Below are positions 25,318-54,970 of a stretch of DNA of 64,000 nucleotides, piece after piece. The DNA is taken from contig JBDWAQ010000005.1 of the NCBI GenBank assembly GCA_039978835.1, forward strand, positions 586,631 through 650,630, in the 5' to 3' direction. The notes under the pieces are model-generated. The model was given only the letters and a program-made list of their open reading frames with translations. It was not told the origin of the DNA and made no database searches. Made by a program: the position numbers and the translations under genes. The DNA is from Parasphingorhabdus sp. (GTDB lineage Bacteria; Pseudomonadota; Alphaproteobacteria; Sphingomonadales; Sphingomonadaceae). Position 1 is the stretch's first letter; each line of letters begins with the position of its first letter.

Positions 25318-25348
25318 CAGTCGATCCTTTGTCTGTTATGCTGTTCGC

Positions 25349-26494: not shown

Positions 26495-26507
26495 ATTCTC
26501 TCTCTCC

Positions 26508-27641: not shown

Positions 27642-27770
27642 TGGCTCCCAATATTTCAATGGCCCTGTACGGCCATTCAACAGAAGCAACATAAACCATC
27701 ACAGCACTATCGGGACATGAGTTCTACTTATGCGGTTGCCTGAATCTATTTTGTTCCAGGCTGGGAAAAA

Positions 27771-29108: not shown

Positions 29109-29109
29109 A

Positions 29110-32100
29110 TTATTTACTCCGTTTGTCCGGGTTCCATTCACCAGCTTTCTGAAACTCCGGTGCGGGCACGGGTTGGTAGTTCTCCAGTTGCTTCATCATT
29201 TCTGCGATCGCCCGATCCAGTTGTTGATCGACGCCGTTTGCAAGCTGAGCCGGGTCATTGGCAACTTCAATATTGGGACGCACGCCTTCATTGCCTTCTG
29301 CCCACTTTCCATTGACTGTTGCTACGCGAATAGGGGGAGCGGAGATGAAACCGCCATTGATCAGCGGCAATGACAATCCGGGGCCGATTAACCCGCCCCA
29401 TGTCCGCTCTCCAATGAGCGGGCCAAGTTTGGCTGTTTTGAACAGCAAGGGAAATCCGTCGCCTCCTGAATAGCTCCATCCATTGATCAGCATAGCCTTG
29501 GGACCGCGAAACGCGTTTTCCGGCAGTGGATAGGATGTGCTGTTGCGGGCCCGGAAATAAATCAGTGGAGGACGGTTTAGCAGTTCGACGAACCTGTCAC
29601 CCAAGGCTCCACCGGTGTTGAAACGCTCGTCTATGATGAGCGCATCCTTGTCGATCTGGGATCGATACTGGATCATCAATTCGTTTTGGCCTTCGCGACC
29701 GGTGTTCGGCACATAGATATAGCCGATACGGCCACCGCTAGCCTTTTCGACCTTTTTCCGGTTTTCCTCGACCCATACCAGTTCGCGCAACTTGCGCTCA
29801 CTTTTGAGTGTTTTGACTTTTACAGTTCGCGCATCCGAACCATCGGGCGAACTGGCGATTCGCAATTCTACGGTTTTGTCAGCCAGACCCTCAAAAGGTT
29901 GCCATGGATTTGTTGCCGTTGTGATGGGTTTATCATTAACGGCCAAGATAACGGTTCCCTCATTGATCGCCAATGCAGGATCATCCAGTGGAGAATGATG
30001 TTCAAGATGCCGATTACCGGTTCGGATTATCTTGCCGACACGATAAACATCGCCATCAGGAACGAAATCGATCCCCAACAGACCTACATTGTCAGCATCG
30101 CTGCGACGACGCGGGGCGGTCGCGGACGCATAAACATGGCCGCCTTCCAGTTCACCCTCCATCTCTCGGACAATAAAGGTCAAATCATCGTCGATATAGG
30201 CATAGGGTAGCAGCGCTTCATAGCGGGAGCGAACTGCATTCCAATCCACACCGTGAATCGTTGGATCATAATAAAAATCGCGAGGATAGCGCCATGCATC
30301 TGCAAACATCTGCCGATATTCTGCCTGCCGATCAACGGTCGCGGTCAAACCATCGGTTTTCAGGGCTTTGACTTTGCCTTTCTTGGCGGTGTTGACAATG
30401 AACAGCTTTTTATCCGCTTTAGTCAGCATGTAAGGGCCCGCCGCGCTGGCCAACGACAATTGAGTTTCTTCCTGAAGCGTCACTGGTTTATCGGAACCAA
30501 ACACATATTTCTCTAGGATACTCTTGGTTCCTTGAGATCTATCGCCTTGCCGCAGCAATGCATAACCATCATCGGTAGCGGCAAGAGCTGCGATATTGCC
30601 CGGTTTGGCTCCGAGAAGCGCAAGCCGCCGTTCTGCGTTTCGGGGGGATATCGTTACGCGTTCCGGTTTCCCGGGCATGGCCCAATCCTCCGAGCCGGGA
30701 CTTGGCACGGCGGGATTGAGCGGCAGGATTACGGCAGCGACACTATTGGTATAGGTCCATGTTGCATCAACAATAAAATCGCCATAGGTCGCGGAAAAAT
30801 TGCGGTTGGACAGAAACATCAGATAATTGCCACTGTCATCAAAAACCGGCGAAAAGTCGTTGTACAGACCAGATGTAAGCTGGTGCTTCCGTGCGGTTTC
30901 TATCTCATAGGCGAAGATAGCGTGATTACGATTGTCGAGGCCATTGGCATAGCTGATCCACCGGCTGTCTGGTGACCATGCGATTGGCAATGTGCCCAGA
31001 TCCCAATGAAACCACCACTTGCCCTGATCGACGCGTGTTTTGATGCCAGTTTCAATATCAACCAGCCACAAGACCTGTTGATAGTCCATTAATGCGACCC
31101 GTTTCCCATCCGGCGACCAATAAGGATTGTAGCGGAGCCCGGGTCCAAAATCGGCGACTTTGCGTTCCACGCCATCGGAGCTGCGAACATATAGTGCATA
31201 TTCGCCATCACTATCGCTGAAATAGGCGACGCGACCATCGGCAGAAATTTGCGGATATCGCTCCGCAGAACCGGACGATTGCGTTATATTTGCAGCGTTC
31301 TTCTTGCGGCCCTTATAGCGGAAAATATCCCCCCGGGCTTCGATAACAACATCGCCATCGCCATTAATCGCTGCATTACTAATCCGGTCTGCAACTTTTT
31401 GCTGTTTGGGTTTCCATTTCACCATGTCCATTTCGGTGCTGAGAGAAATGCGTTCCGGGCTGGATTTAGTGGATGGATCCAGGCGATAAAGCTGTCCGCC
31501 AGCCTCAAAGATTATTTGCCTACCATCGGCAGACGGACGACGGACATCCGTGTCTGTAAAATGGGTAACCTGAACGGGTTCCTGACCGTCCTGACCCAGC
31601 CGCCAGATGTTGGACCGGCCATTATCGTCTCGCTCGGTAAGATAATAGACGGCATCTCCGACCTGCATCGGAGTAGAATCAGAAGCTTCATGATTGGTGA
31701 GCTGGTTTCCGCTTCCGGTTACCGGATCATAGGACCATAGGTCCGGTGCGCGCCCCCCGCGATACCGTTTCCATGCTTCCTCCTGAAAATCCCGCAAATA
31801 GCTGTAGAGGATGGTTTTACCATCATTGGCATAGGTGGCTGTTTCGCCATATGGAACAGGTAGCTTTTTTGGCAGGCCGCCTTGTGCCGGCACAATATGC
31901 AGTTGGTTGTACACAGCACGTGGACTGGACATGGTGGATGCGAATAACACGCCTGTGCCATCTGGTGACCAATCCAGAGCATAATCTTTGGCTGGATGGT
32001 GTGTTATCCGCTTAGGTTCGCCGCCTGCTGCGGGAATGACATAGATGTCGAGATTGCCGTCTACCTTTGCCGAAAACGCAATTTGGGAACCGTCGGTCGA

Positions 32101-32322
32101 AAACTTCGGTCGGCTCAATTCAGTGCCGAATTCTGTCAAGGATTTTGCAGCCCCGCCGTTCGCGTTCGCGATCCAGATCTTGTCGGCATAAGCAAATGTT
32201 ATCTGGTCTTGATGGATATCGGGATACCGAGCCAGTCCGATATTTTTGGCTGCACTTGGAAATGAAATACAAAGTAGCGAAGATATTATGGCTGAGTATC
32301 CAAGTTGTTTGGAATATGGCAT
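29110..32322 (-). CDS. Tricorn-like S41 family peptidase
   Basis: Signal peptide, beta-propeller repeats (FSTDG, WSPDG), PDZ-like region, GYIYVPN, IIDERFNTGG, SGGD and IGERTWGG motifs. Confidence 0.88.
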   Translation of the reverse strand: MPYSKQLGYSAIISSLLCISFPSAAKNIGLARYPDIHQDQITFAYADKIWIANANGGAAKSLTEFGTELSRPKFSTDGSQIAFSAKVDGNLDIYVIPAAGGEPKRITHHPAKDYALDWSPDGTGVLFASTMSSPRAVYNQLHIVPAQGGLPKKLPVPYGETATYANDGKTILYSYLRDFQEEAWKRYRGGRAPDLWSYDPVTGSGNQLTNHEASDSTPMQVGDAVYYLTERDDNGRSNIWRLGQDGQEPVQVTHFTDTDVRRPSADGRQIIFEAGGQLYRLDPSTKSSPERISLSTEMDMVKWKPKQQKVADRISNAAINGDGDVVIEARGDIFRYKGRKKNAANITQSSGSAERYPQISADGRVAYFSDSDGEYALYVRSSDGVERKVADFGPGLRYNPYWSPDGKRVALMDYQQVLWLVDIETGIKTRVDQGKWWFHWDLGTLPIAWSPDSRWISYANGLDNRNHAIFAYEIETARKHQLTSGLYNDFSPVFDDSGNYLMFLSNRNFSATYGDFIVDATWTYTNSVAAVILPLNPAVPSPGSEDWAMPGKPERVTISPRNAERRLALLGAKPGNIAALAATDDGYALLRQGDRSQGTKSILEKYVFGSDKPVTLQEETQLSLASAAGPYMLTKADKKLFIVNTAKKGKVKALKTDGLTATVDRQAEYRQMFADAWRYPRDFYYDPTIHGVDWNAVRSRYEALLPYAYIDDDLTFIVREMEGELEGGHVYASATAPRRRSDADNVGLLGIDFVPDGDVYRVGKIIRTGNRHLEHHSPLDDPALAINEGTVILAVNDKPITTATNPWQPFEGLADKTVELRIASSPDGSDARTVKVKTLKSERKLRELVWVEENRKKVEKASGGRIGYIYVPNTGREGQNELMIQYRSQIDKDALIIDERFNTGGALGDRFVELLNRPPLIYFRARNSTSYPLPENAFRGPKAMLINGWSYSGGDGFPLLFKTAKLGPLIGERTWGGLIGPGLSLPLINGGFISAPPIRVATVNGKWAEGNEGVRPNIEVANDPAQLANGVDQQLDRAIAEMMKQLENYQPVPAPEFQKAGEWNPDKRSK

Positions 32323-32748
32323 AGAATCTGGTTCCTCAATGCTACTTATACCCGCAGTGCCGGGTTCGGCATTTTCCTTGTTGCGGACCATATTGTCGAC
32401 TGAAACCAACTGACAATCAAATACTGCTCATTGGATATATCAGCGCAGGTAATGACCCAACCAGTTTCGTAAAATTGAACTCGATACAGCCGAGAACTCT
32501 GCAAATCAGTCTGTTTGGAGTGCATGAGTAATATTGTTGTCAATCCCATGAGGACAGGTAATGCAGAGTGCAAATTTATCTAGATTGTGGTTTCGATGCC
32601 TCCATTCGTAAATTGCAGGCAATGACTGATGCGGCGTTTTCGGCATCTTATCCAAGTTTAGGCCGGGGCAACAAAAGCATCAGTCAGCAAACCAGTTTGG
32701 AATTGTCGGTGCGGTCGGAGAACCGTATTGGCGCTTAGGGAGGTTAAT

Positions 32749-35247
32749 ATGGCTGCAAGAGTAAATAGTTTTTCCGGTTTGCGCAGTACTATCATGGGTG
32801 GAATTTCAGCAGTTGCTTTATCGGCAACCATTGCAATTCCAGCACAAGCGCAAGATGCTGCCGCGGAGGAGAAAGACAGTGGTGTCGGTATCATTGTTGT
32901 AACGGCACAGCGACAACAACAGACCATCTTGGATGTGCCGGTGAGCGCTACTGTGCTAACTGAAACGGCGCTAGAGCAGACCAATTCCCAAAGCGCGTTG
33001 GATTATTTGAAGCTTACCCCGAACGTTAGTTTTCGGCAGTCAGGCCGGAACGGTGCGCGTGAGATTGTTATTTCCATTCGCGGTATTGCTGATTTGAAGG
33101 GCGGCGAGAAAGTTAGTACACAAAGTGCGTTCACAACCTTTGTCGATGATTTCAGTCTCGGTACATTGGCAACTAGTCAAGCCAACCCCAATATCTATGA
33201 CGTTGAGGCGGTTGAAGTACTACGCGGCCCGCAAGGCGTGTTTTTCGGACGTAATGCCGAAGGCGGAGCCATCAATATTCGCACCAAGCGGCCGGAACCG
33301 GAGCTGGGCGGCCGGGTTGATGTGGGCTGGGGACGTTTTGATAGTTTTGAACTGGCTGGTGTCGCTAATATCCCCATTTCGGACACGGTGTTTACTCGCT
33401 TTTCCGCGCAAGGGACGAAAACGGATAGCTTTTTGACAAACTTGCACCCGACCGGCGGTGATGGCGGTAATGAGTATCTCAATATTCGTGGCCAGATACG
33501 CTGGGTTCCAACGGATGCAACGACGATTGATCTGCAGGTCAATCATACTACAGACAATCAGAATTACACGCCCAAGCTTTCAACCTGTGTCAATCCGAGT
33601 TTCGGTTTTAACCCGTTTGATGGTAACATATTGGGTGGTATCGGTTGTTACAGCCCAAATGGAGCATTGGCGACCGAAGTAGCTGCGGGGCGTGTCACGC
33701 TGCCTGCTGGTGTTACTCTGGCTTCTATAGCGGACAACCGTAGCCTTACCTATCAGAACTCTCCAGAATACACTCGTAACAAAACCAATTATTTTATTGG
33801 CCAGATCGAGCATGTCTTTAATGATTCAGTCGTGCTTAATGCGGTTTCGGGTTATTCCGAATCGAAAAGTGACCAATATCTTGATCTCGACAAATCGGGA
33901 CTCGATTCGGTCGACCGTTCCGGGTTTTTTGAGACAGAATCCTATAGTCAGGAGATAAGGCTGGCTTCCGTCGGTGAAAATACTATCGATTGGACCATTG
34001 GCGGTATTTATTACAGTGAAAAATCTGATGCACAGAACAAAATTCGTATCAAAGGTTTCTTGGGCCCATGGCTAAGAGGCGATTTTGCCAACGAAAACCG
34101 TATTGGTGTTGAACGCGATGGTTGGGGTATTTTCGGTAATGCGGAATGGCATGTCAGTGATCAGTTCTCGATCATGGGTGGTTTGCGTTATTCCCAAGAT
34201 AAAGATTCTCAGAATTGGACGGAAGTCTTTGCTGCTTGTCCTCGCAGACCGATCGGAACACCATTGGCTGCTGGCTGTACACTACGTCCGGATCAATTGC
34301 TGATCAATACAGCGCAAGTGGATGCTATGGGCAATGTGTTCGTCTCTGGTGGACGGCAATCGCAAACCACCGGAACATTCGGAGAGGGTAAAACAAAAGA
34401 TCTCTCTGGCCGTGCGGCTGTAAACTGGAAGCCCAATGATGAAATAAACCTCTACGCTTCAGTTTCCAAAGGCTATAAGCCGGGCGGTGCTCGGGCTAAC
34501 CCCGATGCGGGAACTTTGGCCAATGTCAGTATCTTCGGCAAAGAGACTTTATGGAACTATGAAATTGGCGGAAACGCCTATCTCTGGGACCGTAAGGCCT
34601 TACTTCAGTTTGCTGTATTCTACATGGATTGGCGCGATATGCAGGTCGAACTGCGAGAGCAATTCTGCACGAACGATCCTGCCAATCCTGTACCCATTGA
34701 TCAGTTTGTAGGAACAGGCTGTGTTATCACGCCGCTTGATCGGACGGTCAATGCCAACAAGGCGCGGTCCAAGGGCTTCGAATTGGCCGCGGTCGTTAAG
34801 CCACTTGACGGCCTAACGCTGCGCGGCGCTCTCGGCTTCACGGATGCCAAGTTTGTCGATTTCCGTGACACTGTTCGCAACACGCCGGCGGATTTGTCAG
34901 GTCAAAGGATCGGTCTTGCTCCCAAGTGGACTGGCTCCGCCGGTGCGCAATATGATTTTGCCGTTGGCGATGCCGAAGCAAATATCGGCATAGATTGGAG
35001 CATCCGCAGTTCGGCAGACCTTGGCTTGGTCCAGCGAGCAGCAAACAACTTTCCCGGTAAAATCCCGGCCTATGGAACGGTCGATATACGCGGCGGCATT
35101 GATTTCGGGAATCATCGCCTAAACATCAAGTTCGAGAATATATTAGGCAGTGACTATTATACCGGTACTGATGGCTTCAGCTTTGGCGGTGCTCAGGTAG
35201 ACTATCACCCAACCAGCTACTTTATTAGCTGGACGGCCGAAATGTAG
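32749..35247 (+). CDS. TonB-dependent receptor
   Basis: IIVVTAQR TonB box, VEVLRGPQGVFFGRNAEGGAINI plug motif, C-terminal barrel strand. ATG after GGAGG. Confidence 0.93.
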   Translation: MAARVNSFSGLRSTIMGGISAVALSATIAIPAQAQDAAAEEKDSGVGIIVVTAQRQQQTILDVPVSATVLTETALEQTNSQSALDYLKLTPNVSFRQSGRNGAREIVISIRGIADLKGGEKVSTQSAFTTFVDDFSLGTLATSQANPNIYDVEAVEVLRGPQGVFFGRNAEGGAINIRTKRPEPELGGRVDVGWGRFDSFELAGVANIPISDTVFTRFSAQGTKTDSFLTNLHPTGGDGGNEYLNIRGQIRWVPTDATTIDLQVNHTTDNQNYTPKLSTCVNPSFGFNPFDGNILGGIGCYSPNGALATEVAAGRVTLPAGVTLASIADNRSLTYQNSPEYTRNKTNYFIGQIEHVFNDSVVLNAVSGYSESKSDQYLDLDKSGLDSVDRSGFFETESYSQEIRLASVGENTIDWTIGGIYYSEKSDAQNKIRIKGFLGPWLRGDFANENRIGVERDGWGIFGNAEWHVSDQFSIMGGLRYSQDKDSQNWTEVFAACPRRPIGTPLAAGCTLRPDQLLINTAQVDAMGNVFVSGGRQSQTTGTFGEGKTKDLSGRAAVNWKPNDEINLYASVSKGYKPGGARANPDAGTLANVSIFGKETLWNYEIGGNAYLWDRKALLQFAVFYMDWRDMQVELREQFCTNDPANPVPIDQFVGTGCVITPLDRTVNANKARSKGFELAAVVKPLDGLTLRGALGFTDAKFVDFRDTVRNTPADLSGQRIGLAPKWTGSAGAQYDFAVGDAEANIGIDWSIRSSADLGLVQRAANNFPGKIPAYGTVDIRGGIDFGNHRLNIKFENILGSDYYTGTDGFSFGGAQVDYHPTSYFISWTAEM

Positions 35248-35384
35248 TCCAACACCAATGGCGATGAGCGTCTCCATTTAAACGTCTTGCGTGATGATCG
35301 CATGAAGGAATTCTCATCCCGGGAATCGTTCATGCGGTCATTGCGATATAAAGCGCCCGCGACATGGAGTTTTGGGAGAGTGAA

Positions 35385-36980
35385 ATGAACGACACCTATT
35401 CTTTGGCAAAATGGTTTAGCTTCATTTTTTTTGCGGCACTTCTTTTTGTGAATCCCTTGGGAGCAAGATCGGCGGAGGCGAAGGCCGGCAAAATCAAACG
35501 CCCCAATATCATCCTCATTGTCACTGATAATCAAAGTGAGCGGCTGTTGGGAGCCTATGGAAACACCCATATCAAAACGCCTCATATCGATCAGCTTGCG
35601 GCGGAGGGAAGCCTTGTTGCAAATGCCTTTGCAGCCAGCGGTGTATGCTCCCCAACCCGCGCCGCTCTGTTGACCGGATTGATGCCGTCTCAGACCGGCA
35701 TTCATGTTGCGCTGCCGCCGGTTGTGGATTTGGAGAATTGGTCCGCGATAGAGGAATTTCGCAATCTACCGTCTGCGCTGTCGGCGGCAGGTTATGTAAC
35801 CGGTCTGGTTGGCAAATATCATTTGGGAAATCATTATAAGCCTCAGATTGGCTTTGATCATTGGGTCACATTCCATGGCGGGCATACGACGACATTCTGG
35901 GATCAGGAAGTTGTCGATAATGGCGAAACTTATAGAATGCAGGGCCATCTGACGGATTTCTGGACCGACAAAGCGATAGAATTTGTCCGTGACCAAACGG
36001 ACAAAAAACCGTTTTTTCTGATGCTCGCCTATAACGGCCCCTATATGTTACCGCCAACGGTACTGATGGAACCGCGCGGGAAACACGCCGCTTACTATAG
36101 CAAAAATATTCCCCCGATGCCGCAGACACCGATCCACCCCTATCTGGAATCCTGGGCTCGGGGCAAAGGTCCGACGGGACAGATGGTAAAGGATGGAACA
36201 ACCGCCTGGCGGGCGATACGCGCGTTGAACAATCCGATTGCGATGATCAATACAGCGGCCGAAATGTCCTTGCTCGATGATGGTATTGGTCGTCTAGTGG
36301 CTTCCTTAAAAGCGCAAGGATTGGATGAAGATACGTTGATCGTCTTCACATCGGATCAGGGCAGTTCCTATGGCCAACATGGCCTGTGGGGTAACACCTC
36401 GTGGTCATTTCCTTTTGCCGCCTATAATATGAACATGCGGGTTCCATTGATCGTGCGTTATCCGCGCTTGATAGCCGCGGGGCAAACCACCGATCGCATC
36501 GTTAATCAGGTCGATATTTTTCCAACCATATTGGACTATGCGAATGTTGCGGACAAAAACATTCCCAATTCATCGGGAAAAAGCATTGTGTCTATATTGG
36601 AAGGCAAAAATACTGACTGGGACGATGTTGCTTTCTTTGAATTTGTGACGGTTCGGGTGATAGAGACGCCCAAATGGAAGTATAGCAAAAGCTATCATGA
36701 TGATGTGACGGCTGAATTATATGATTTAGAAGCCGATCCGGAGGAGCTTAACAATCTGATTGCTGTGTCTGAACATACGAAGATCATAGAACAGCTGGAT
36801 CAGCAGTTGGATGCCTATTTCACGAAATATTCAGACAGCAAATATGATCTGTGGCGTGGCGGCACGGCAAAGGCACAATTGCTCGGCAATCATTACGGCA
36901 AAGATTATATTTTCTCAGACCGGTTTCCCGATTGGAAGACTCCCAAAGTTGAAAAGCTGTCTCCCTATGTTGAGAAATGA
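35385..36980 (+). CDS. Exported Cys-type sulfatase
   Basis: Signal peptide, RPNIILIVTD, CSPTRAALLTG (formylglycine motif), GKYHLG and FTSDQG. Confidence 0.9.
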   Translation: MNDTYSLAKWFSFIFFAALLFVNPLGARSAEAKAGKIKRPNIILIVTDNQSERLLGAYGNTHIKTPHIDQLAAEGSLVANAFAASGVCSPTRAALLTGLMPSQTGIHVALPPVVDLENWSAIEEFRNLPSALSAAGYVTGLVGKYHLGNHYKPQIGFDHWVTFHGGHTTTFWDQEVVDNGETYRMQGHLTDFWTDKAIEFVRDQTDKKPFFLMLAYNGPYMLPPTVLMEPRGKHAAYYSKNIPPMPQTPIHPYLESWARGKGPTGQMVKDGTTAWRAIRALNNPIAMINTAAEMSLLDDGIGRLVASLKAQGLDEDTLIVFTSDQGSSYGQHGLWGNTSWSFPFAAYNMNMRVPLIVRYPRLIAAGQTTDRIVNQVDIFPTILDYANVADKNIPNSSGKSIVSILEGKNTDWDDVAFFEFVTVRVIETPKWKYSKSYHDDVTAELYDLEADPEELNNLIAVSEHTKIIEQLDQQLDAYFTKYSDSKYDLWRGGTAKAQLLGNHYGKDYIFSDRFPDWKTPKVEKLSPYVEK

Positions 36981-36999
36981 TAGCATCGCAGAGCCTTCC

Positions 37000-38133
37000 T
37001 CAACCCAATAGCTTGAACATTCCCAGACCGAAGAAATTCCCTATGGCATAGCCCAGCATGCCGGTTGCGATGGCGGGTGTGACAAGGTTTTTCCATCCTT
37101 TGGCTGAAGCAATACCAGCAGCCGGTGCTGCTCCGACAATATTGGCACCCGACCCGATGATGGTTTCCGCCAGGTCGAATTTGAAAATCTTCGCGACCAG
37201 TAACATCAACCCGATATGACCAAAAATTATGATCAGTCCGTAGAGAAAGAATATGGGCGCCTTGGTAACGAAAGTGATCGCATCCGTGCTGGCCCCGATG
37301 GCGGCGAAAAACAGATACATGCCAAACATTCCAAACTCGAAATCACCCTTCAACTTGTTAAGAGATGCGGAGAATATGTTCGCTAACAGCACGGCGATGA
37401 TTGTGATGAGAAACAAGAGATAGTTACCAAGATCGAAATAGTCGGTAATCATCTCGCTAACGACGCAAATAATTGCGCTCAGAGCCAAAGCCCCGGCAAC
37501 ATGCGTCAGCTTAAACGACACATGTTCAGCCTGCATCGACGGCATGTTTTTGTCTTCAGCCTGCTCATCCATAATTTTGGATGAAAAGTGCCGGCGAATG
37601 AAAGGTATCTGAGGTAGAATCGCGAGAGTGCTAAGACCAATAATACTCACTGGCGCACTGGCGCTTACCACTACAGAAAATTCTGATGGTGACATCTGGG
37701 TAAGCTCTGACAGGGCAACGAGATTTACCATGCCGCCGACCCACGCTGCGGTGTAGGTCGCAGCTACTTTTGGTCCCAGTTCACCGAGATCGAGAATATA
37801 ATAGCCGAGTAGTGCAGCAATAAAAACGGCCACTGATCCGATGAGGAATATCGGTAATACCATGCCACTTTCCTTGAGGATTTTGGTGAGCGTGGCTTTG
37901 TACAGAAGGAGGGGGACTGCAAGCGGCAGAATATACCCAAATATCACGCCATACAGATCGGACTCAAAAGGAAGAATTCCGGTGTTTGATAAGGCCACTC
38001 CCAATATCAGTATCCACACAACTCCGGGAATTTTGCAAGCGATCGGATGGGTTTCGGACCAGAATCCAAACCAGACCAGGCTCAGGAGCACAGCCAATTG
38101 AAGAAAATAGTCTTCCGCACCAATTAGTGTCAT
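37000..38133 (-). CDS. DUF819-like multi-pass membrane protein
   Basis: About 11 TM segments; GG.VN, SGANIVGA and GMLGYAIGN motifs. Confidence 0.7.
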   Translation of the reverse strand: MTLIGAEDYFLQLAVLLSLVWFGFWSETHPIACKIPGVVWILILGVALSNTGILPFESDLYGVIFGYILPLAVPLLLYKATLTKILKESGMVLPIFLIGSVAVFIAALLGYYILDLGELGPKVAATYTAAWVGGMVNLVALSELTQMSPSEFSVVVSASAPVSIIGLSTLAILPQIPFIRRHFSSKIMDEQAEDKNMPSMQAEHVSFKLTHVAGALALSAIICVVSEMITDYFDLGNYLLFLITIIAVLLANIFSASLNKLKGDFEFGMFGMYLFFAAIGASTDAITFVTKAPIFFLYGLIIIFGHIGLMLLVAKIFKFDLAETIIGSGANIVGAAPAAGIASAKGWKNLVTPAIATGMLGYAIGNFFGLGMFKLLG

Positions 38134-38157
38134 TTTCCGTCCTCCCCAACGTCGCTT

Positions 38158-38892
38158 CTACGACTTCAACCACCCGTTGCCGGTGATTTTTCTTACAATT
38201 GATTCTGCTCTAACACCTCTATCGAGATCAAGTTGATCCGACACAAACTGACCCGTATTGCCAAGTGGATATCGCATTTCGGGCCCGGGCTGTTCCACAA
38301 TGTCGGCAATTTGACGGGCCACCGTGTCCGGATCATCGCCGGTTTCATTCCCTGCAAAGCCCGTTGCTATCGCACCGGGTTCAATCACAAGTACGCGAAT
38401 GGCGCGCGGGGCCAGTTCGGCGGCGAGGCTCTGGCTCATACCTTCTAGCGCAAATTTGCTTGCAGCATAGGCTCCGTCGCGCGGAAGTCCGACCAGACCC
38501 GACAGTGATGAAATCATAACGATCGTACCGCCATCTGGCATGTAAGGCAGAGCCGCCTTGGTAAGGCGCCAGACACCAAGCAGATTCACATCCAGAATAT
38601 GTTTGAAATCATCTTGTTCCAGATCCTCCAACCGACCATCCATATGTATCCCGGCATTGTTGATAAGGATATCCAGAGCGCCTTCGGCGGCACTATTACC
38701 GCATGCGTTAGCAGTGGATTCGAGATCACGAACATTTAGTGAGACCGGAGAGATTGTCCCGTTCGAGCTATGATCAAATTGCGGTTTGTTGGAATAATAG
38801 CCTGCGTGAACGTGATCGCCGCGCTGTGCGAATTCCTGGGCCAGCGCCCGCCCCAGGCCGCGTGATGCGCCACTAATCAATATATTCGCGAT
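38158..38892 (-). CDS. Short-chain dehydrogenase/reductase with an apparent ATC start codon
   Basis: SGASRGLG, NNAG and YAASKFALEG motifs. GGGAG, 8 nt, then ATC GCG AAT ATA TTG ATT gives (M)ANILISG. Confidence 0.8.
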   Translation of the reverse strand: MANILISGASRGLGRALAQEFAQRGDHVHAGYYSNKPQFDHSSNGTISPVSLNVRDLESTANACGNSAAEGALDILINNAGIHMDGRLEDLEQDDFKHILDVNLLGVWRLTKAALPYMPDGGTIVMISSLSGLVGLPRDGAYAASKFALEGMSQSLAAELAPRAIRVLVIEPGAIATGFAGNETGDDPDTVARQIADIVEQPGPEMRYPLGNTGQFVSDQLDLDRGVRAESIVRKITGNGWLKS

Positions 38893-39080
38893 GGAGCCTA
38901 CTCCCGATCAATATTGTTTTCCGAAGACGAGATTACCGGAATTTCGTGTATTACGATGCATTTTTATTTTTAGGCACCCATGAATATTGCTCACGCGGCC
39001 TATCAGCGTGACTAATTTCCCACTGCGTCCAATTATCGATACATTCGAGATCACGTTCAAAAAATTGGATTGGGGAAACG

Positions 39081-40655
39081 ATGGCGGATTTTGATGTCGT
39101 GGTTGCCGGCGGCGGCGTAAATGGCCTTGCCTGTGCAGCGACGCTTTCCCGCAAGGGATTGAAAGTCTGTGTGGTGGAGCGCAATCCGTGGGTCGGTGGC
39201 GGCGCCGTTACGCAGGAAGTAACGCTCCCCGGATTCAAGCATGATCTTTACGGATCATCGCATGTCTGGATTCAGTGTAACCCCGACTTCAAGGAAATTC
39301 AGCCTGACCTTGAACGGCTTGGTTTGAAATATCTGGAACCCGATGATCATATCACCGGTCATCCCGACAAAAATGGTGGGCCAGGCATTGTTATCTACAA
39401 GTCCATCGACAAGACCTGCGAATCCATCGCCGCCTATTCAGAGGCCGATGCCGCGCGATACAAATCAGTCTATGCGGATTTCGAACAGGTTCGGGAAGGC
39501 TTTATCAAAGCCTTTTTCTCGCCTCCCGCGGCACCGTCCGCGCTATCCAGTGCGCTGGAAACCAGCGAGGCGGGGCTTCGCCGACTGCGGGAGTTTTCCA
39601 TGTCGGCGCGTGCCTGGGTAGAATCGAATTTTGAAAATGATTTTGTCAAAGCAGTCATGCTCAATTGGGCACTGGCTCCGCAGATACTGCCGGATCAGGA
39701 GGGTGCAGGCCAATCCTTCTACATCATGATCCCCGCTATCCACTATTACGGACAGGCTATTCCCGAAGGCGGCAGCATGGAATTGCCAATCGCCATGGCG
39801 AAGCTGGTGGAGGAGCAGGGCGGAAAAGTGATGACTGAAGCTCCGATCGACAAGATTATCGTCGAAGATGGTCAGGCGAAAGGTGTGCGGTTGGAAAGCG
39901 GCGAAACGATCATGGCGAGCCGTGCCGTTGTCTCGGCGCTGGAACCCAAACAGATGTTCCACAAATTTATCGGCGAAGAGCATTTTGAGCCGGAATTCAA
40001 CGATATGGTGAAAAGCTATTCTTTCGGCAAGATCAGCATCTGTCGTGCACAGCTAGCACTCAGCGAAGCGCCTGAGTTCACCAACGGCGCGGATATGAGC
40101 AAATGTCCGTTCCACCGGATCGTGGATTCGATGGATCAGATGATCAACTTCTATGCCGAACTGGCTACCGGCAAGCCGCCCAGTGATCCCTTTCTCTGGT
40201 CGGCTTGCTGGACCAAGCTGGATCCCACGCGTGCACCCGAGGGACAACATACGTTGATCTTTGACACTTATGTTTCGAACTGGCTTGCGGATGGACGGAC
40301 GTGGGACGAGATCGGCGAGGAATATACCAAGACGGTCTTGCTGCCAAAGCTTCAGGAATATGCGCCCAATATCAATGAGAAAACTATATTGGGAATGCAC
40401 ATTCAACACAGACACACACTCGAGGATGCCAATCCCAGCTTTGTCGACGGAACGACAAATGGCGGGGAACGGATTGCCGCACAATTGGGAAGTTTCCGGC
40501 CTTTCCCCGGATATGCCCATTACCGCTCACCGATCAAGGATTTGTACATGACCGGGCCGCATTGCCATCCGGGCGGCGGAATTTCGGCAATGGGAACGAT
40601 TACGGCACGCGTGATGCTTGACGATATGGGAATTGAACCTGCGGACTTCTGGTAG
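39081..40655 (+). CDS. FAD-dependent oxidoreductase, phytoene dehydrogenase-like
   Basis: VVVAGGGVNGL...VERNPWVGG, PEGGS and C-terminal DLYMTGPHCHPGGGI motifs. Confidence 0.85.
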   Translation: MADFDVVVAGGGVNGLACAATLSRKGLKVCVVERNPWVGGGAVTQEVTLPGFKHDLYGSSHVWIQCNPDFKEIQPDLERLGLKYLEPDDHITGHPDKNGGPGIVIYKSIDKTCESIAAYSEADAARYKSVYADFEQVREGFIKAFFSPPAAPSALSSALETSEAGLRRLREFSMSARAWVESNFENDFVKAVMLNWALAPQILPDQEGAGQSFYIMIPAIHYYGQAIPEGGSMELPIAMAKLVEEQGGKVMTEAPIDKIIVEDGQAKGVRLESGETIMASRAVVSALEPKQMFHKFIGEEHFEPEFNDMVKSYSFGKISICRAQLALSEAPEFTNGADMSKCPFHRIVDSMDQMINFYAELATGKPPSDPFLWSACWTKLDPTRAPEGQHTLIFDTYVSNWLADGRTWDEIGEEYTKTVLLPKLQEYAPNINEKTILGMHIQHRHTLEDANPSFVDGTTNGGERIAAQLGSFRPFPGYAHYRSPIKDLYMTGPHCHPGGGISAMGTITARVMLDDMGIEPADFW

Positions 40656-40679
40656 GCCGCACTGAAAGAGGAAACAAAG

Positions 40680-41834
40680 ATGACAGCACCGAAGATTGAC
40701 AAATATACCGCATTGATAATGCAACCTCATGTTGTGGTTGCTGATGATCGTGACGGGATTAAACAAAACCTCGATCGCGCAATGAACATGATCGATTTTG
40801 GCGTCGGGTACTTTTGGGAATTGCCATCGCGTCTGGTCGTTTTTCCGGAATATTTCATGCAGGGTGTGACAACGCCTGGCAAAGGTGAGCATGGCATTGA
40901 CAGCTTCATGAAGAAGGCCATTACAATTGACGGTCCGGAAATGCAGGCGCTTGGTGAAAAGGCCAAGGAATATAATCTCTACATTGCTGGTGGCGGGGTC
41001 ATTGAAAAGGTACCGGAATTTCCGGATCGCTGGTTCAATACCGCATTCATTATCGGGCCATCCGGGGACGTTGTTCTAAAATATCACAAATGGCATATTC
41101 CGGCTTCCATTGGCCTTGGTACCAGCCCGCACGATATTTTTGACGAGTATAAAGAGGTCTTCGGTGGCGATATCAGGGACCTGTTCCCGGTTATCGATAC
41201 CGACATTGGTAAGCTGGGCACCATGACCTGTCACGATGGCTGCACACCCGAAGTATCGCGGGCGCTGGGTTACAATGGCGCTGAAGTCATCTGCCATCCG
41301 GTGGCACTGCAAGAAGTCGAAGGCGTTTCCGAGCCTTGGGATTTCTGGATGTTCACACGCCGCACACGCGCGCATGATAATATGGCTTATGTGCTGGGAT
41401 CCAACTGGGGAACGGTGGATTATGATTTTTACCCCAAAGCTTTTTGCCCCGGCAACAGCTTTGCGATTGATTATCAAGGCATGGTGATGCGTCATTCGCC
41501 CTATCCGCAGGAACAGGTAATGGGTGTCACCATCGATATCGAAGGTTTGCGTGAGCATCGTTCGCGCTGCAATCACAATACATGGGTGGACGTGCGGACC
41601 GAAGGCTTCCGTCAGATTTACGAGAATCCGATTTATCCGGCCAATCAATTTCCGAGCGGAAAGCCGCCGCGGACATTGGCCGATAAAATGGATCCCGTTA
41701 AGGAAGTGTTCCGTGACATTTATGGCCGCGGGCAGTTTACTCCCCCAGCCGGCAAGACCGTCGACGACATGGCCAATCAGCATGCAGAACGTGTGAAACG
41801 GGCGCAGGATATTGGTACGTTGAAACGCGACTAA
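40680..41834 (+). CDS. Nitrilase-superfamily C-N hydrolase, formamidase-like
   Basis: Triad FPEYF (E), YHK (K), TCHDG (C). The CHDG context resembles AmiF-type formamidases. Confidence 0.8.
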   Translation: MTAPKIDKYTALIMQPHVVVADDRDGIKQNLDRAMNMIDFGVGYFWELPSRLVVFPEYFMQGVTTPGKGEHGIDSFMKKAITIDGPEMQALGEKAKEYNLYIAGGGVIEKVPEFPDRWFNTAFIIGPSGDVVLKYHKWHIPASIGLGTSPHDIFDEYKEVFGGDIRDLFPVIDTDIGKLGTMTCHDGCTPEVSRALGYNGAEVICHPVALQEVEGVSEPWDFWMFTRRTRAHDNMAYVLGSNWGTVDYDFYPKAFCPGNSFAIDYQGMVMRHSPYPQEQVMGVTIDIEGLREHRSRCNHNTWVDVRTEGFRQIYENPIYPANQFPSGKPPRTLADKMDPVKEVFRDIYGRGQFTPPAGKTVDDMANQHAERVKRAQDIGTLKRD

Positions 41835-41847
41835 GGAAGGGTTACTA

Positions 41848-42138
41848 ATGCGTGTAGTCAGTTCTCTTGCTGATATTGATTTTAGCATAGGCCGTATCGT
41901 CCGTCGCGGCGGCAATATGGTCATTGAAAGCAGTGCGGACAGCACGCTGGAAACAATTGTGACCGTTACCCCGCGAGATGCTTTGAAGTCTCTGGTGGCA
42001 TTGGCCGTCAGCCCGTCGGCGTGGATATTTGTCTTAACGCTGCCCTTTGCTCTGCTTGTAAGGGGGAATGGATCAACCGCTTCCGATGATGATTGGGAGG
42101 AGCGGCGGTCACGCATAGGTTTGAACAAGCCGTGGTAG
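41848..42138 (+). CDS. Small hypothetical protein with one hydrophobic segment
   Basis: 96 aa, RBS AAGGAAGG, co-oriented within the operon; overlaps the eda start by 7 nt. Confidence 0.6.
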   Translation: MRVVSSLADIDFSIGRIVRRGGNMVIESSADSTLETIVTVTPRDALKSLVALAVSPSAWIFVLTLPFALLVRGNGSTASDDDWEERRSRIGLNKPW

Positions 42139-42767
42139 AACCGGGTGCTTTCGATCGAATTGCACAGGATCGCATTGTTCCGGTGGTCATTCCCGGTGAA
42201 CCCATACAGATGGAGGGACTTGTTGAAGCGCTTTTTCTGGGAGGGCTGGGAACGATAGAAATCACCCTGCGTTCCGAAACTGCAATTGATGCCATTTCCA
42301 TTGCGGCAAAACAAAATAATCTGATTGTTGGCGCGGGAACCGTCTTGAGCGTTGAGCAGGCGGAAAATGCGGTTGGAGCCGGAGCAAGATTTCTGGTTAG
42401 CCCGGGCTTCGATCCGGCAGTTGTTGGCTGGGCAAAGCGCAATGATGTACCGATAATTCCTGGAATTGCGACAGTTAGCGAAGCGATGCGTGCGATCGGT
42501 TCGGGCCTGCATTTTGTGAAATTGTTCCCGGCTGAGCAACTGGGCGGTGCGAAAACGGTACAAGCCATGGGTGCCGTGCTCCCGGACCTTAAAATCATGC
42601 CAACTGGTGGTGTTACGCTGAAAAACCTGACGGATTATCTTTCTGTGCCAGCAGTTGGAGCCGTCGGTGGAACCTGGATCGCGCCAGCTGATGATATTGT
42701 GAATGGCCATTTTGCCAAAATCACCGAACGAGCGAAAGCCGCCGTGGCTTTGTCACTTTCCCTATAA
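42132..42767 (+). CDS. eda: KDPG/KHG aldolase
   Basis: IEITLRS, VGAGTVL, FLVSPG, VKLFPA and MPTGGV motifs. GTG start at 42132. Confidence 0.9.
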   Translation: MVEPGAFDRIAQDRIVPVVIPGEPIQMEGLVEALFLGGLGTIEITLRSETAIDAISIAAKQNNLIVGAGTVLSVEQAENAVGAGARFLVSPGFDPAVVGWAKRNDVPIIPGIATVSEAMRAIGSGLHFVKLFPAEQLGGAKTVQAMGAVLPDLKIMPTGGVTLKNLTDYLSVPAVGAVGGTWIAPADDIVNGHFAKITERAKAAVALSLSL

Positions 42768-43774
42768 TGTCCGTTTCACGATCAATTATCTGTTTCGGTG
42801 AAATGCTACTCAGACTTTCTGCCTCGGAAACTGATCAGGAGTTGATAAGCTCATCACATTATTCCTCTCGCGTTGCCGGTGCGGAAGCAAATGTCGCTAT
42901 CTCCCTGGCTTCGTTAGGACTGCAATCCCGTATGGCAACGATCCTTCCTGACAATATGCTGGGTGATCGCGCTTTGAAGACCTTGTCGGATCACGGCGTT
43001 AACACCGGACCGGTCGTTCGCAAGCCGGGCCGAATGGGACTGTTTTTCCTGAACTCGCAAATCGCTGGCCGGGAAGGGGGCTTGATTTACGACCGGGAGG
43101 GTTCGGCATTTGCCTCGGCTGCTCCTGACGAGATCGATTGGACGAAAGCATTATCGAATGCGACATGGCTACATATCTCCGGTATTACCGCCGCTTTGGG
43201 AGAGGGTCCTTTACAAGCACTGCATAATGCCTGCACCGCTGCCAAAGATGCTGGCGTCAAAATCTCTTTTGATTGCAACTATCGGCCATTGCTCTGGCAA
43301 TACAGGGAACAGGAGGCGCCAGCAATCTTGGCGGCATTGGCACAGCATGCAGATCTACTCTTTGCCGGGCCTTGGGATGTATCACTTATGACTGGTACGC
43401 CACAGAGTGAAGAAAAAGCGTTGGATGCGTTTGAGAGTTCTGCGGAAGCGGCCTTTCGAGAATTCCCCAATCTGGCTATGATTGCAGCCACTTCACGAAC
43501 CATCGTCGGAAGCGAACATCATCAACTTGGTGCGCATATCGGCACACGATCGGGAGCAGTTCACGAGCCTCCGCAAACAATAAACCCGGTAATTGATCGT
43601 ATAGGCAGTGGTGATGCTTTCGCTGCGGCGGTGCTTTATGGTGTCACGCATGATTGGGATGCTACACGGATCGCGAGATTTGCCCTGCAGGCTTGTGTCA
43701 TGAAACACGCAATTCATGGTGATTTTAGCAATCTGAATGCAAGGGAAGTCGAAGCAGCATTGTCAGCTGAGTAA
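42767..43774 (+). CDS. kdgK: 2-keto-3-deoxygluconate kinase (PfkB family)
   Basis: FGEMLLRLS, AGAEANVA, SFDCNYRPLLW and DRIGSGDAFAA motifs. Confidence 0.85.
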   Translation: MSVSRSIICFGEMLLRLSASETDQELISSSHYSSRVAGAEANVAISLASLGLQSRMATILPDNMLGDRALKTLSDHGVNTGPVVRKPGRMGLFFLNSQIAGREGGLIYDREGSAFASAAPDEIDWTKALSNATWLHISGITAALGEGPLQALHNACTAAKDAGVKISFDCNYRPLLWQYREQEAPAILAALAQHADLLFAGPWDVSLMTGTPQSEEKALDAFESSAEAAFREFPNLAMIAATSRTIVGSEHHQLGAHIGTRSGAVHEPPQTINPVIDRIGSGDAFAAAVLYGVTHDWDATRIARFALQACVMKHAIHGDFSNLNAREVEAALSAE

Positions 43775-43776
43775 AT

Positions 43777-45048
43777 TTAACTGGATTCTGCCTCTTGATC
43801 TTCCAGCTTTAGTCCCCCCGCAATCATGGTGGCTATTGCTGCAAACCCGGCAAGCGTAAACAGCACACCCTGTTCGCCAAACGGTTCGATCAATGGACCA
43901 AGCATGGCCGCACCGAACACTAGCGCGATATTCCCGCAGACCATTGTGAAAGAGAATTGGGTCGCGGCGATCATCTTCCAGCATTGCCTCATGGTGGCTG
44001 CAAAAAACGCGATGAAAATGAACACCAGCAGCATTTCAAAAGCAGCAAGATAAAGCCCGCCGAGTTGAAACCGAAGTGCCATTGCCATTGCAAAATTAAC
44101 GGCCATAAGTGTTGCAAAAAGTGTGACCAGTGATCGTCGATGTCCCAGGTAATCCACCAGCACTCCGCCGGCAAATATACCGGCAACACCGGCAACAAGT
44201 TTGAGGCTGGATCGAAACTGGGAATAGTCGGTTTCGTTCCAGTGAAATTCCTGCACCAGCAATACGGGCAGCAAGGCACCTGACAATCCGGCGATCAATC
44301 CTATGCAGATCGAAATTCCAATCAAACGCATCGCAGACGGACGGCGGATGGCAGCAAATAACTGGGCCAGCAGTATCTTCCAGCTGGAAGTCTGTCTTGC
44401 TGCGGTTTCGGCGCTAGTCGCGCCAGCAGTCCAGGGCAGAAAGCGCTCACCTGACCGTTCTTTCACAGCAAGAACAAATATTAGCACCACAAGCAATATT
44501 GCAGCGGCAAAATAGGCCATGGCTTCAAATCCGGCAAAGGCGAGTATTGCCGCGCCGCTGGCTCCGGCAGCAGCGGTGCCAAGGGTTTTGCTGCCCCACA
44601 TGATCCCATTGGCGCGGCCCTGCTCATGAGACGGCACAACATCCATCACCATTCCGTCAGTCGCAACGTCCTGAAACACCGTCGCCAATGTGATGCAAAA
44701 GGCACCAATAGCGAACAGACTGAGGTTATCCGCTGGTTCACCAATGGAGGCGAGAAACAGAAAACTGATGGCTATTCCGAACTGGCCAAAAATTACCCAG
44801 GGTCGCCGTCGCCCCATCGGTAGATAGGCCACGCGATCAATGAGCGGTCCGACAAATAATTTTGCCGAGTTTGGCAACATTGCAGTCGCCAGAAAAGTTC
44901 CGATAGCAGCTGCTGTCATCCCATTTGCGGCCAGATAGGCCGGAAAGATGATCAACACCATTGCATCGGGAATACCCTGTGCCGCGTAAAGTGTTGCAAA
45001 TGCGGAATACCGCAGCCATTTATTCTGACTGAGATCGAATTCCGTCAT
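43777..45048 (-). CDS. MFS transporter (AmpG-like)
   Basis: 12 TM segments; LYAAQGIP, GRRRPW and QDVATDG motifs. Confidence 0.8.
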   Translation of the reverse strand: MTEFDLSQNKWLRYSAFATLYAAQGIPDAMVLIIFPAYLAANGMTAAAIGTFLATAMLPNSAKLFVGPLIDRVAYLPMGRRRPWVIFGQFGIAISFLFLASIGEPADNLSLFAIGAFCITLATVFQDVATDGMVMDVVPSHEQGRANGIMWGSKTLGTAAAGASGAAILAFAGFEAMAYFAAAILLVVLIFVLAVKERSGERFLPWTAGATSAETAARQTSSWKILLAQLFAAIRRPSAMRLIGISICIGLIAGLSGALLPVLLVQEFHWNETDYSQFRSSLKLVAGVAGIFAGGVLVDYLGHRRSLVTLFATLMAVNFAMAMALRFQLGGLYLAAFEMLLVFIFIAFFAATMRQCWKMIAATQFSFTMVCGNIALVFGAAMLGPLIEPFGEQGVLFTLAGFAAIATMIAGGLKLEDQEAESS

Positions 45049-45075
45049 CCTACAATGTTGTGGAGCGGTTGAACA

Positions 45076-46284
45076 TCACCAGTGCCAAAGCGTTCCGTCT
45101 TCCAGGCGGTTTACCGGCAAATAGGCGGGTTTGTAGGGATATTTCGCAGCGAGCTCTTCATCGATATCGACGCCATGGCCCGAAGTATCTCCCGGGAAGA
45201 GCGCTCCGTCCTTGAAGCTGTAACTATGGGGGAAGACCGCATCGGTTTCTTCGGTGTGACGCATGTATTCCTGAATACCGAAATTGGGCACCCAGATATC
45301 GAAGTTCAGAGCTGCTCCCATGCATACCGGCGACAGATCGGTTGCGCCGTGGCAGCCGGTCCGGATCTGATACATGGCCGCAAGATCGGCAATGCGCCGC
45401 AAATGGGTTATCCCGCCAGCATGGACGACCGTCGCGCGGATATAATCGATCAACTGATTCTGGATGAGATCTTTGCAATCCCAGATTGTGTTGAATATCT
45501 CACCGACAGCAAGCGGTGTCACCGTATGTTGCCGGATCAGGCGAAAGGCCTCCTGATTTTCTGCGGGCGTGGCATCTTCCATCCAGAATAGTCTGTAAGG
45601 TTCGAGCGATTTTCCCAATCTGCCAGCTTCAATCGGGGTCAGCCGGTGGTGCACATCGTGCAGAAAATGAGGTTCGAAACCAAAGCGTTCACGCAGATGC
45701 TCAAAAAGCTTTGGCGTGTGATCAAGATATTTTTCTGTCGACCAGACGTTTTCCGACGGTAGTTCGGCATCAGCAGGCTCGTAATACATCTTGTCCTGTG
45801 ACACGCCGTATGTAGACGCCAATCCCGGAATACCAGTTTGCGCCCGAATGGCTTTATAGCCCATCTCGATATATCGAGAGACTTCATCCGAAGTTTCTTC
45901 AATGTCGCGTCCATTGGCATGGCCGTATACCATCACCGATTCCCGGCTTTTTCCTCCCAACAACTGGTAAAGGGGCATCCCGGCGGCTTTGGCTTTGATG
46001 TCCCACAATGCCGTATCAACGGCGGCTATGGCGGCCATCGTGATCGGCCCGCGACGCCAATAGGCTCCGCGATACAGATAGTGCCAGATATCCTCAATTC
46101 GACTCGCATCCTTACCAATCAAACAGGGGATTACATGATCATCAAGATAGGACACAACCGATAGCTCGCGCCCGTTGACGGTAGCATCCCCGAGTCCGTA
46201 GATTCCCTCGTCTGTTTCGATTTTCAGCGTAACAAAATTGCGCCCAGGACAGGTGACGATCGTTTTTGCGGATATGATTTTCAT
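45076..46284 (-). CDS. manD: D-mannonate dehydratase (RspA/ManD family)
   Basis: [36 protein letters not shown] and [12 protein letters not shown] motifs. Confidence 0.92.
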
Positions 46285-46398: not shown

Positions 46399-47316
46399 AT
46401 GACCCGCCGCTTACCTCCTCTTTTGGCTTTGCGTGTCTTCGAATGCGCCGGTCGACATCTCAGCTTCACCAAAGCTGCCGAGGAGCTATGTGTAACACAG
46501 GCTGCAGTTAGCCATCAGATAAGAGCCCTCGAAACATGGTTTGGAAAACCGTTGTTCAAGCGCCTCAACCGATCATTGAAATTGACCGTCGAGGGTGAAC
46601 GGATGCTGGGTCCGATGACTGAAGCGCTGGATATAATGGCTACGGCAACATCTGAAATCGCGCAGGATGACGATAGTCAGGTTTTGAATGTCTCTGTGCT
46701 GGATTCGTTTGCCAGTGTCTGGATATTGCCGCGGTTGCAGAGTTTTCATCAGCGCTTTCCTGATATTGATGTCCGCTTTGACTCGTCGCCGGTCGAAGAA
46801 GATAGTTTGGGCAGCGGTCATTCGGATCTGGAAATCCGTTATGGCAATGGTACTTGGCCAGGGCTGCATGTCTACAAGTTCATGGATGAGGAAATTTTCC
46901 CCGTTTGCAGTCCGAAATTGCTGGAAGGACGGGATTGCCCGACCAGTCTTGACGAGTTGGAGGAGTTTGAGTTGCTCCACGATGTCATGTCGATCGACTG
47001 GGAACTGTTCCTGAAGAATTTTGGTGTGAAAGCAATGAACGTCCGGCGCGGTTTCGGGTTCAACCATTCCCAACTTGTCGTTCAGGCCTGTATTGAAGGG
47101 AATGGATTTGCGCTGGGCCGCGGTGCTTTGGTTGCCGACGCGATAAAAACAGGCAAACTGGTAAGGCCGTTTAAGGAATCAATGCCGGCAGGACTGGCCT
47201 ATTACGTTGTTTGCCGGCCCGGAGACTCTGACGATGCTGCGATCAAGGCATTTTCCTATTGGTTGATGGATGAAATAGAGGCAGAAAATGCGTTGGAAAC
47301 TAAAGACGCATCATGA
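46399..47316 (+). CDS. LysR-family regulator, GcvA-like
   Basis: LPPLLALRVFECAGRHLSFTKAAEELCVTQAAVSHQIR HTH plus effector domain. Confidence 0.92.
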   Translation: MTRRLPPLLALRVFECAGRHLSFTKAAEELCVTQAAVSHQIRALETWFGKPLFKRLNRSLKLTVEGERMLGPMTEALDIMATATSEIAQDDDSQVLNVSVLDSFASVWILPRLQSFHQRFPDIDVRFDSSPVEEDSLGSGHSDLEIRYGNGTWPGLHVYKFMDEEIFPVCSPKLLEGRDCPTSLDELEEFELLHDVMSIDWELFLKNFGVKAMNVRRGFGFNHSQLVVQACIEGNGFALGRGALVADAIKTGKLVRPFKESMPAGLAYYVVCRPGDSDDAAIKAFSYWLMDEIEAENALETKDAS

Positions 47317-48775: not shown

Positions 48776-48792
48776 GATATTCCTCTATCCGC

Positions 48793-49920: not shown

Positions 49921-49923
49921 CGA

Positions 49924-52930: not shown

Positions 52931-53051
52931 CGACCACCTTGTCTATAAATTGTGCAAAAACACTAGTTTTCATTCTTCTTCTGGTCAAGACATTGTCCGC
53001 GCTTAGGCTATCATCGTGCACAATATGATCGCTGAAGAATTGGAATTGAAT

Positions 53052-54969: not shown

Positions 54970-54970
54970 G

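Follow-up and report, generated by a model that had tools for sequence, protein, structure and literature searches.

Which compound is degraded by the catabolic genes at the centre of the window, a stretch of 64,000 nucleotides from Parasphingorhabdus sp. (contig JBDWAQ010000005.1, positions 586,631 to 650,630)? A co-oriented run of five genes encodes a flavoprotein, a nitrilase-superfamily hydrolase and a 96-amino-acid (96-aa) protein, here called the trio, followed by a KDPG aldolase (eda) and a 2-keto-3-deoxygluconate kinase (kdgK). The initial annotation proposed that the locus imports, desulfates, oxidises and deformylates a sulfated, nitrogen-containing sugar-acid conjugate. Our analysis establishes that the trio is co-conserved and that it is linked to the catabolism of both indole-3-acetic acid (IAA) and mannonate. 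The substrate is very probably a conjugate of tryptophan and mannose that gives IAA and D-mannonate. The best fit is C2-alpha-mannosyl-L-tryptophan (C-Man-Trp), a leftover of animal C-mannosylated proteins, and on balance we lean towards this compound.

The conservation of the cluster was studied in 80 loci carrying hydrolase orthologues (74-97% identity), hosted by sphingomonads, Parvularculaceae, Hyphomonadaceae, Kordiimonadaceae, Woeseiaceae, Steroidobacteraceae and sponge-associated Gammaproteobacteria. The trio is co-conserved in Alpha- and Gammaproteobacteria with shuffled gene orders; the flavoprotein gene lies directly upstream of the hydrolase gene in 78 of the 80 loci and the small gene is present in 68, which argues against the chance mosaic that the initial annotation had named as the alternative. 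Within 10 kb of the hydrolase, again in many orders, we repeatedly found kdgK, the D-mannonate dehydratase gene manD, and genes for an aldehyde dehydrogenase (ALDH), a thiamine diphosphate (ThDP) enzyme, an aminotransferase, a DUF819 protein and a LysR regulator. When 50 cluster-bearing genomes were compared with 56 cluster-free relatives from the window's own order, the ThDP enzyme was present in 49 of the former and 4 of the latter, and ManD in 46 and 2, respectively. The conserved unit therefore extends to the aminotransferase, the ThDP enzyme and the ALDH, with its right edge at 51570; the boundary first drawn at 46284 was too narrow, leaving out these three enzymes and the LysR regulator (46399-51570).

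This wider unit identifies the likely aglycone. An aminotransferase, a ThDP decarboxylase and an aryl-acetaldehyde dehydrogenase make up the indole-3-pyruvate route from tryptophan to IAA. The window also carries homologues of iacA, B, C, D, E, H and I clustered with catechol genes, in the same order (iacH-A-B-I-C-D-E) as an Acinetobacter baumannii locus and with 41-67% identity to it; no iacF homologue was identified in this cluster. The gene set agrees with the table in PMC11373566. An IacA orthologue (52-97% identity) is encoded in 13 of the 50 cluster genomes and in none of 60 relatives. For the alternative iad route, our query was the Rieske subunit from a cluster-adjacent locus, which matches PDB 7yls/8h2t (E 1.6e-132), presumably the Variovorax IadD, and whose flanking genes (MarR, CoA ligase, thiolase, short-chain dehydrogenase/reductase (SDR), cyclase-like) fit iad. 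Matches at 45% identity or more occur in 35 of the 50 cluster genomes against 3 of the 56 controls. Taken together, an iac or iad-like route is found in 47 of 50 cluster genomes (iac 13, iad-like 35, both in one) and in 3 of 56 relatives, and by coordinates it lies within 50 kb of the hydrolase in 25 of the 50. In Sphingomonas colocasiae the linkage is direct, as iacABICDEG ends in an overlapping kdgK that is immediately followed by the cluster. Mapped on the hydrolase tree, the iac/iad label requires three or more switches along well-supported branches, which indicates that the IAA-degrading partner was replaced independently. The side-chain module, together with the linkage to IAA catabolism (iac at 20790-27692), points to tryptophan as the aglycone; both had been left out of the first catabolic reading. 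IacA oxygenates indole C2 (PMC7225977), so a sugar or other substituent at C2 would have to leave first.

A kynurenine-like route that begins with ring cleavage was considered and rejected, because such a route has no use for IAA genes and gives no hexonate. The source genome encodes a tryptophan 2,3-dioxygenase (G000:C8:309549-310337), and no kynureninase was found in it with TIGR01814. Other indole-related genes were seen beside the cluster elsewhere. Two Hyphomonadaceae genomes without iac and iad share a stretch (L033:12366-20575 and the matching part of L037, 72-85% DNA identity) with a flavin monooxygenase, alpha/beta hydrolases, an M20 enzyme and a LigB dioxygenase beside the trio, possibly a third IAA or indole route. 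MarR and indolepyruvate:ferredoxin oxidoreductase-like alpha/beta genes adjoin the cluster at L084, L085, L087, L088, L089 and L100, and a salicylyl-CoA 5-hydroxylase-like gene stands beside the IadD-like gene at L104. An iac-type cluster that lacks annotation lies on plasmid pNL2 of N. aromaticivorans (L102); it includes a TonB receptor, and its ALDH shares 47% identity with that of the window.

The second product is defined by the mannonate branch. The ManD of the window matches PDB 2qjj at 749 bits, and it shares with all 35 locus copies (35/35) the motif HGATD, in which we take the alanine of HG(A/G/P)TD to mark mannonate specificity. A mannonate-consuming enzyme is encoded in all 50 cluster genomes (50/50), drawn from three unrelated families: ManD, UxuA and a putative nickel-pincer epimerase. 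Three of the four genomes without ManD have UxuA, beside the ThDP gene of the cluster (G076), beside iad (G102) or beside uxaC (G082); in the fourth (G077), the trio is immediately followed by genes for a hexonate epimerase of nickel-pincer group 18 and a gluconokinase (L039:11498-13338). Conversion of D-mannonate to D-gluconate is the activity of groups 19 and 20 of this family, and that of group 18 is taken to be similar (PMC7583248); the gene context in G077 suggests the same activity. We also tried the hexuronate pathway as the source of mannonate and rejected it: as the initial annotation had noted for the locus, uronate isomerase (UxaC, PF02614) and mannitol/fructuronate dehydrogenase (PF08125, the UxuB family) were not found, here anywhere in the 99.97% complete source genome, and UxaC is present in only 13 of the 50 cluster genomes. 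Three unrelated solutions to the same step argue that the pathway delivers free D-mannonate that is not derived from glucuronate.

An alternative is that IAA and mannonate catabolism are unconnected functions brought together on islands of niche adaptation, with the trio acting on an unrelated compound. The catabolic region is bracketed by two tRNA-Leu(CAA) genes (9478-9562 and 59045-59129), which is consistent with a genomic island, and no hydrolase orthologue was found in the 36 same-genus genomes searched, so that hitch-hiking is conceivable. A plasmid search gave no close orthologue of the hydrolase, whose closest relative (97%) comes from an uncultured Parasphingorhabdus. Both partners, however, have been replaced independently (iac by iad; ManD by UxuA or the epimerase) across classes while the gene order was reshuffled, and we consider an accidental gathering improbable.

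The sulfated conjugate originally proposed, N-formylated or N-methylated and processed by import, desulfation, oxidation and deformylation, must be weighed against the same loci. In its favour, a sulfatase of one of two subfamilies lies near the trio in 14 of the 80 loci, and the nearest solved structures to the hydrolase are formamidases (about 23% identity). Sulfatases orthologous to that of the window (at least 40% identity) were found in only 3 of the 80 loci, and there is none at the loci of Rhizorhabdus wittichii RW1, whose genome has the core cluster near 1.88-1.90 Mb of CP000699.1 and an IacA orthologue, or of S. colocasiae; the conserved unit therefore does not need a sulfatase. The hydrolase does not qualify as the formamidase AmiF either (NF009803, 76.3 bits against a cut-off of 406), and the proposal leaves the IAA linkage and the aminotransferase module unexplained. 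Of the first proposal, the nitrogen-containing conjugate stands, now with mannonate as a product, whereas sulfation and deformylation as core steps are not supported. As the main substrate a sulfated conjugate is very improbable; a sulfated variant is possible as a side substrate.

A tryptophan-mannose conjugate that yields IAA and mannonate without a glycosidase implies an oxidative release at sugar C1, and neither a glycoside hydrolase nor a carotenoid (crt) gene was found among the conserved neighbours of the 80 loci. The flavoprotein has CrtO ketolase as its best NCBIfam match (247 bits, below the cut-off of 1000) and falls below a second carotenoid-enzyme cut-off in the CrtO/CrtI test (92.5 bits against 238), with a weak match to PF01593. 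These scores and the missing crt neighbours led us to reject a carotenoid role. Its predicted model (pLDDT 87) is closest to the carotenoid desaturase 4rep (TM 0.77). Amine-oxidase folds are also among its structural matches, and a flavoprotein paired with an amidase is a known pattern; the two enzymes might thus act on the amino-acid side chain as the 2-monooxygenase and amidase of IaaM/IaaH or DavB/DavA do, the sugar being removed by, for example, the small protein or the IAA oxygenases. Yet the amine oxidases score at most 0.60, this scheme would duplicate the aminotransferase/ThDP/ALDH route although the ThDP enzyme is kept in 49 of 50 genomes, and it leaves no other conserved enzyme to free mannonate. 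We give it little credence.

The hydrolase has the Glu-Lys-Cys triad and the fold of the nitrilase superfamily (model pLDDT only 66), and residues E57, K137 and C184 are invariant in 48 orthologues. The third member of the trio is, judging by 71 homologues and by differences from its orthologues that are skewed to third codon positions, a true gene. Its product has a hydropathy peak of 1.94 from residue 53, belongs to no Pfam family, and matched only unnamed Atlas clusters in structure and feature searches.

On this basis we propose the following degradation of C-Man-Trp. The peptidases, the TonB receptor and the DUF819 protein would provide for its import, after which the aminotransferase, ThDP decarboxylase and ALDH, going by their enzyme families, would trim the side chain to give 2-mannosyl-IAA. 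Early removal of the amino group would avoid cyclisation of the later ketone to a dihydro-beta-carboline, a possible rationale for dedicated side-chain enzymes. Next, a hydride would be taken from the benzylic sugar C1 by the CrtO-like flavoprotein, possibly helped by the SDR and the small protein, and addition of water would give the ring-opened 2-(D-mannonoyl)-IAA, a 2-acylindole. In what is the least certain step, the Glu57-Lys137-Cys184 hydrolase may detach the acyl residue from C2 of the indole, either directly or once it has migrated from carbon to nitrogen, so that IAA leaves and D-mannonate would be freed through an acyl-enzyme. The last steps belong to established families: ManD, KdgK and Eda would turn mannonate into pyruvate and glyceraldehyde-3-phosphate, and iac or iad, whose linkage we have demonstrated, would degrade IAA. 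If so, this would be the first gene cluster for C-Man-Trp catabolism and a new mode of C-glycoside cleavage, with flavin-dependent anomeric oxidation to an aryl ketone, C-C hydrolysis by a nitrilase-superfamily enzyme, release of an aldonate and an auxin, and paralogous trios doing the same for other sugars. We regard this full scheme as plausible, at somewhat less than an even chance.

Several points weigh against it. The controls include none for the gammaproteobacterial hosts and related genomes are not independent; many of the IadD-like matches are only 45-48% identical to the query; and three cluster genomes (G072, G075, G078) carry neither iac nor iad. On the chemical side, C-C hydrolysis is the weakest link: among nitrilase-superfamily enzymes we know of none that acts on the C-C bond of an acyl-indole, and for this family an amide would be the more fitting substrate. 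From genomes alone, C-linked and N-linked mannose cannot be told apart. Moreover, genome G038 has a second trio cluster, 68% identical (L111 and L112, G038:C2:668000-696445), with two flavoproteins and its own aminotransferase, ThDP enzyme and ALDH, in which a UxaA/GarD-like dehydratase, a 396-aa open reading frame (ORF) and a KGSA-dehydrogenase-like ALDH take the place of manD and kdgK. The arrangement points to a sister pathway that handles another sugar, and because the paralogue is paired with other sugar-acid genes the trio family is not mannose-only.

A rival reading is an N-linked mannose with the same products, such as indole N1-mannosyl-tryptophan, an N-alpha glycosylamine, Amadori or mannopine-like tryptophan adduct, or a tryptophan-hexose tetrahydro-beta-carboline. 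Oxidation of C1 by the flavoprotein would then give an N-mannonoyl amide, which the hydrolase would split like any other amide, in keeping with the normal C-N chemistry of the Glu-Lys-Cys triad. All of the linkage to IAA and mannonate applies equally, and the G038 paralogue suits non-enzymatic adducts of several sugars. Such adducts should, on the other hand, be mostly glucose-derived, whereas three unrelated enzyme families indicate the manno configuration; N-glycosides and Amadori products generally have simpler known routes, and a modification of proteins would accord better with the linked peptidases and the sponge-associated hosts. We thus hold N-linked mannose to be unlikely and continue to favour C-Man-Trp.

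All genes listed in the initial annotation are present where it placed them, and in the co-oriented run they are separated by gaps of 24 nt and 13 nt and then overlap by 7 nt and 1 nt. The features of the region are collected below.

Features of the catabolic region of the window (functions as predicted; occurrence among the 80 loci with hydrolase orthologues)
Feature	Position	Strand	Evidence and occurrence
cat/pca catechol genes	16072-20793		beside iac cluster
iacH-A-B-I-C-D-E (-) and flavin reductase fusion (+): IAA catabolism	20790-27692		order and identity to A. baumannii locus
Tricorn-like protease and dipeptidase-like amidohydrolase; would free the modified amino acid from peptides (proposed)	27771-32409	-	9/80 and 7/80
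TonB-dependent receptor	32749-35247	+	some receptor in 52/80; own subfamily (at least 40% identity) in 8/80
Sulfatase, accessory; N-terminal hydrophobic leader	35382-36980	+	PF00884, CSPTR motif; at least 40% identity in 3/80
DUF819 membrane protein, likely inner-membrane importer	37000-38133	-	PF05684; 35/80
Classical SDR, possibly assisting sugar-C1 oxidation	38158-38880	-	family clusters in 29/80
Core: CrtI/CrtO-like (COG1233-type) FAD oxidoreductase; proposed sugar-C1 oxidase/dehydrogenase	39081-40655	+	78/80
Core: nitrilase-superfamily hydrolase (TCHDG); proposed acyl-indole hydrolase releasing mannonate	40680-41834	+	PF00795
Core: 96-aa protein, one hydrophobic segment; possibly accessory or anchoring subunit	41848-42138	+	68/80
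eda, KDPG aldolase, accessory	42132 (GTG start)-42767	+	TIGR01182, 205 bits vs cut-off 156; 14/80
kdgK, 2-keto-3-deoxygluconate kinase	42767-43774	+	PfkB, KDG-kinase-like; 49/80
AmpG/RhtX-like major facilitator superfamily transporter, accessory	43777-45048	-	6/80
manD, D-mannonate dehydratase	45076-46284	-	NF043051, 758.9 bits vs cut-off 550; 42/80
GcvA-type LysR regulator	46399-47316	+	NF008352; 27/80
Aryl-acetaldehyde dehydrogenase-like ALDH	47300-48775	-	best match StyD, 540 bits, below cut-off; 47/80 at 45% identity or more
HisC-family aminotransferase	48793-49920	-	40/80 at 40% identity or more
ThDP enzyme, PRK08266 family; proposed 2-oxo-acid decarboxylase	49924-51570	-	40/80

A second eda copy is on contig C11 of the same genome, and contig C13 encodes a second HisC-family member (40% identity to the window aminotransferase) that is probably the housekeeping HisC. 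The flavin reductase (20790-21968), fused to a LysR substrate-binding domain, converges on the iac operon. On the right, the stretch 52208-58934 holds genes for 4-hydroxyproline catabolism and, after them, an M24 peptidase broken into two ORFs (57582-58229 and 58254-58934). The hydroxyproline pathway and the tricorn-like and dipeptidase-like neighbours (9 and 7 loci) would suit a bacterium that recovers modified amino acids from animal protein. A scan for promoters and terminators gave no signal beyond chance level. One near-identical cluster (97% hydrolase) has, in the same position (L021:2477-6021, against 32749-36980 in the window), another TonB receptor and another sulfatase, at 31% and 28% respectively, and is without the tricorn pair, which we read as a cassette exchange. 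At L044/L107, L062 and L078, the cluster is accompanied by an SDR and Gfo/Idh/MocA-like oxidoreductase pair.

C-Man-Trp has been found in sponges, ascidians and urine. In humans it is a kidney and cancer biomarker, and the body is believed not to catabolise it; a bacterial consortium consumes it by a mechanism that a 2021 review calls unknown (PMC8433626), and on this point a 2026 paper (PMC13066745) refers to nothing beyond the 2018 enrichment. Our literature searches (C-Man-Trp with Sphingomonadaceae, with IAA or cleavage, and with mannonate; subscription papers outside scope) found no published description of the cluster, in line with the initial annotation, which had recognised no described pathway. 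The cluster is real and conserved, its pathway is apparently undescribed, and it names candidate genes for this breakdown. With the core cluster present in R. wittichii RW1, a cultured model strain, the hypothesis is directly testable. Among the possible gains are an enzymatic measurement of C-Man-Trp, C-C cleavage chemistry that would be new to two large enzyme families, and functions for DUF819 and the unnamed small protein; the pathway could also explain why auxin-degradation genes occur in sponge symbionts and sediment bacteria, far from plants.

Parts of the cluster resemble known systems. Its lower part, from mannonate onward, is that of the hexuronate pathway (uxaC-uxuB-manD/uxuA-kdgK-eda), from which it differs by the isomerase and reductase discussed above. 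As in IaaM/IaaH and DavB/DavA, genes for a flavoprotein and a putative amide hydrolase are adjacent; unlike in these, the flavoprotein appears to be CrtI/CrtO-like rather than amine-oxidase-like, and a seemingly obligatory small third gene and the mannonate branch are added. CrtO turns an activated C-H into a ketone, the type of conversion that we propose for the flavoprotein, which shares the fold and best family match of the CrtO/CrtI enzymes but neither their score nor their gene context. The aminotransferase, ThDP decarboxylase and ALDH, followed by iacH-A-B-I-C-D-E, recall the Ehrlich-type indole-3-pyruvate route with iac or iad (PMC9613470, PMC11630574); here, by contrast, they are coupled to a sugar-acid branch and the trio, and the ThDP enzyme is of the PRK08266 family, not a named indolepyruvate decarboxylase. 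The closest parallel in logic is two-step C-deglycosylation (DgpA/DgpB-C, CarA/CarB-C, glycoside 3-oxidases; PMC8563793, PMC10646112), in which the sugar of an aryl C-glycoside is also oxidised before C-C cleavage. None of the parts of DgpB-C/CarB-C (TIM-barrel alpha subunit, CGDB beta subunit, 3-oxidase) was found among the conserved neighbours, and a PF19906 profile search of the source genome, run without a positive control, gave no match. Those systems combine GMC or Gfo/Idh/MocA 3-oxidases with a TIM-barrel/beta-sandwich eliminase and release an unsaturated keto sugar, whereas the window pairs a CrtI-fold flavoprotein with a cysteine hydrolase and its product would be an aldonate.

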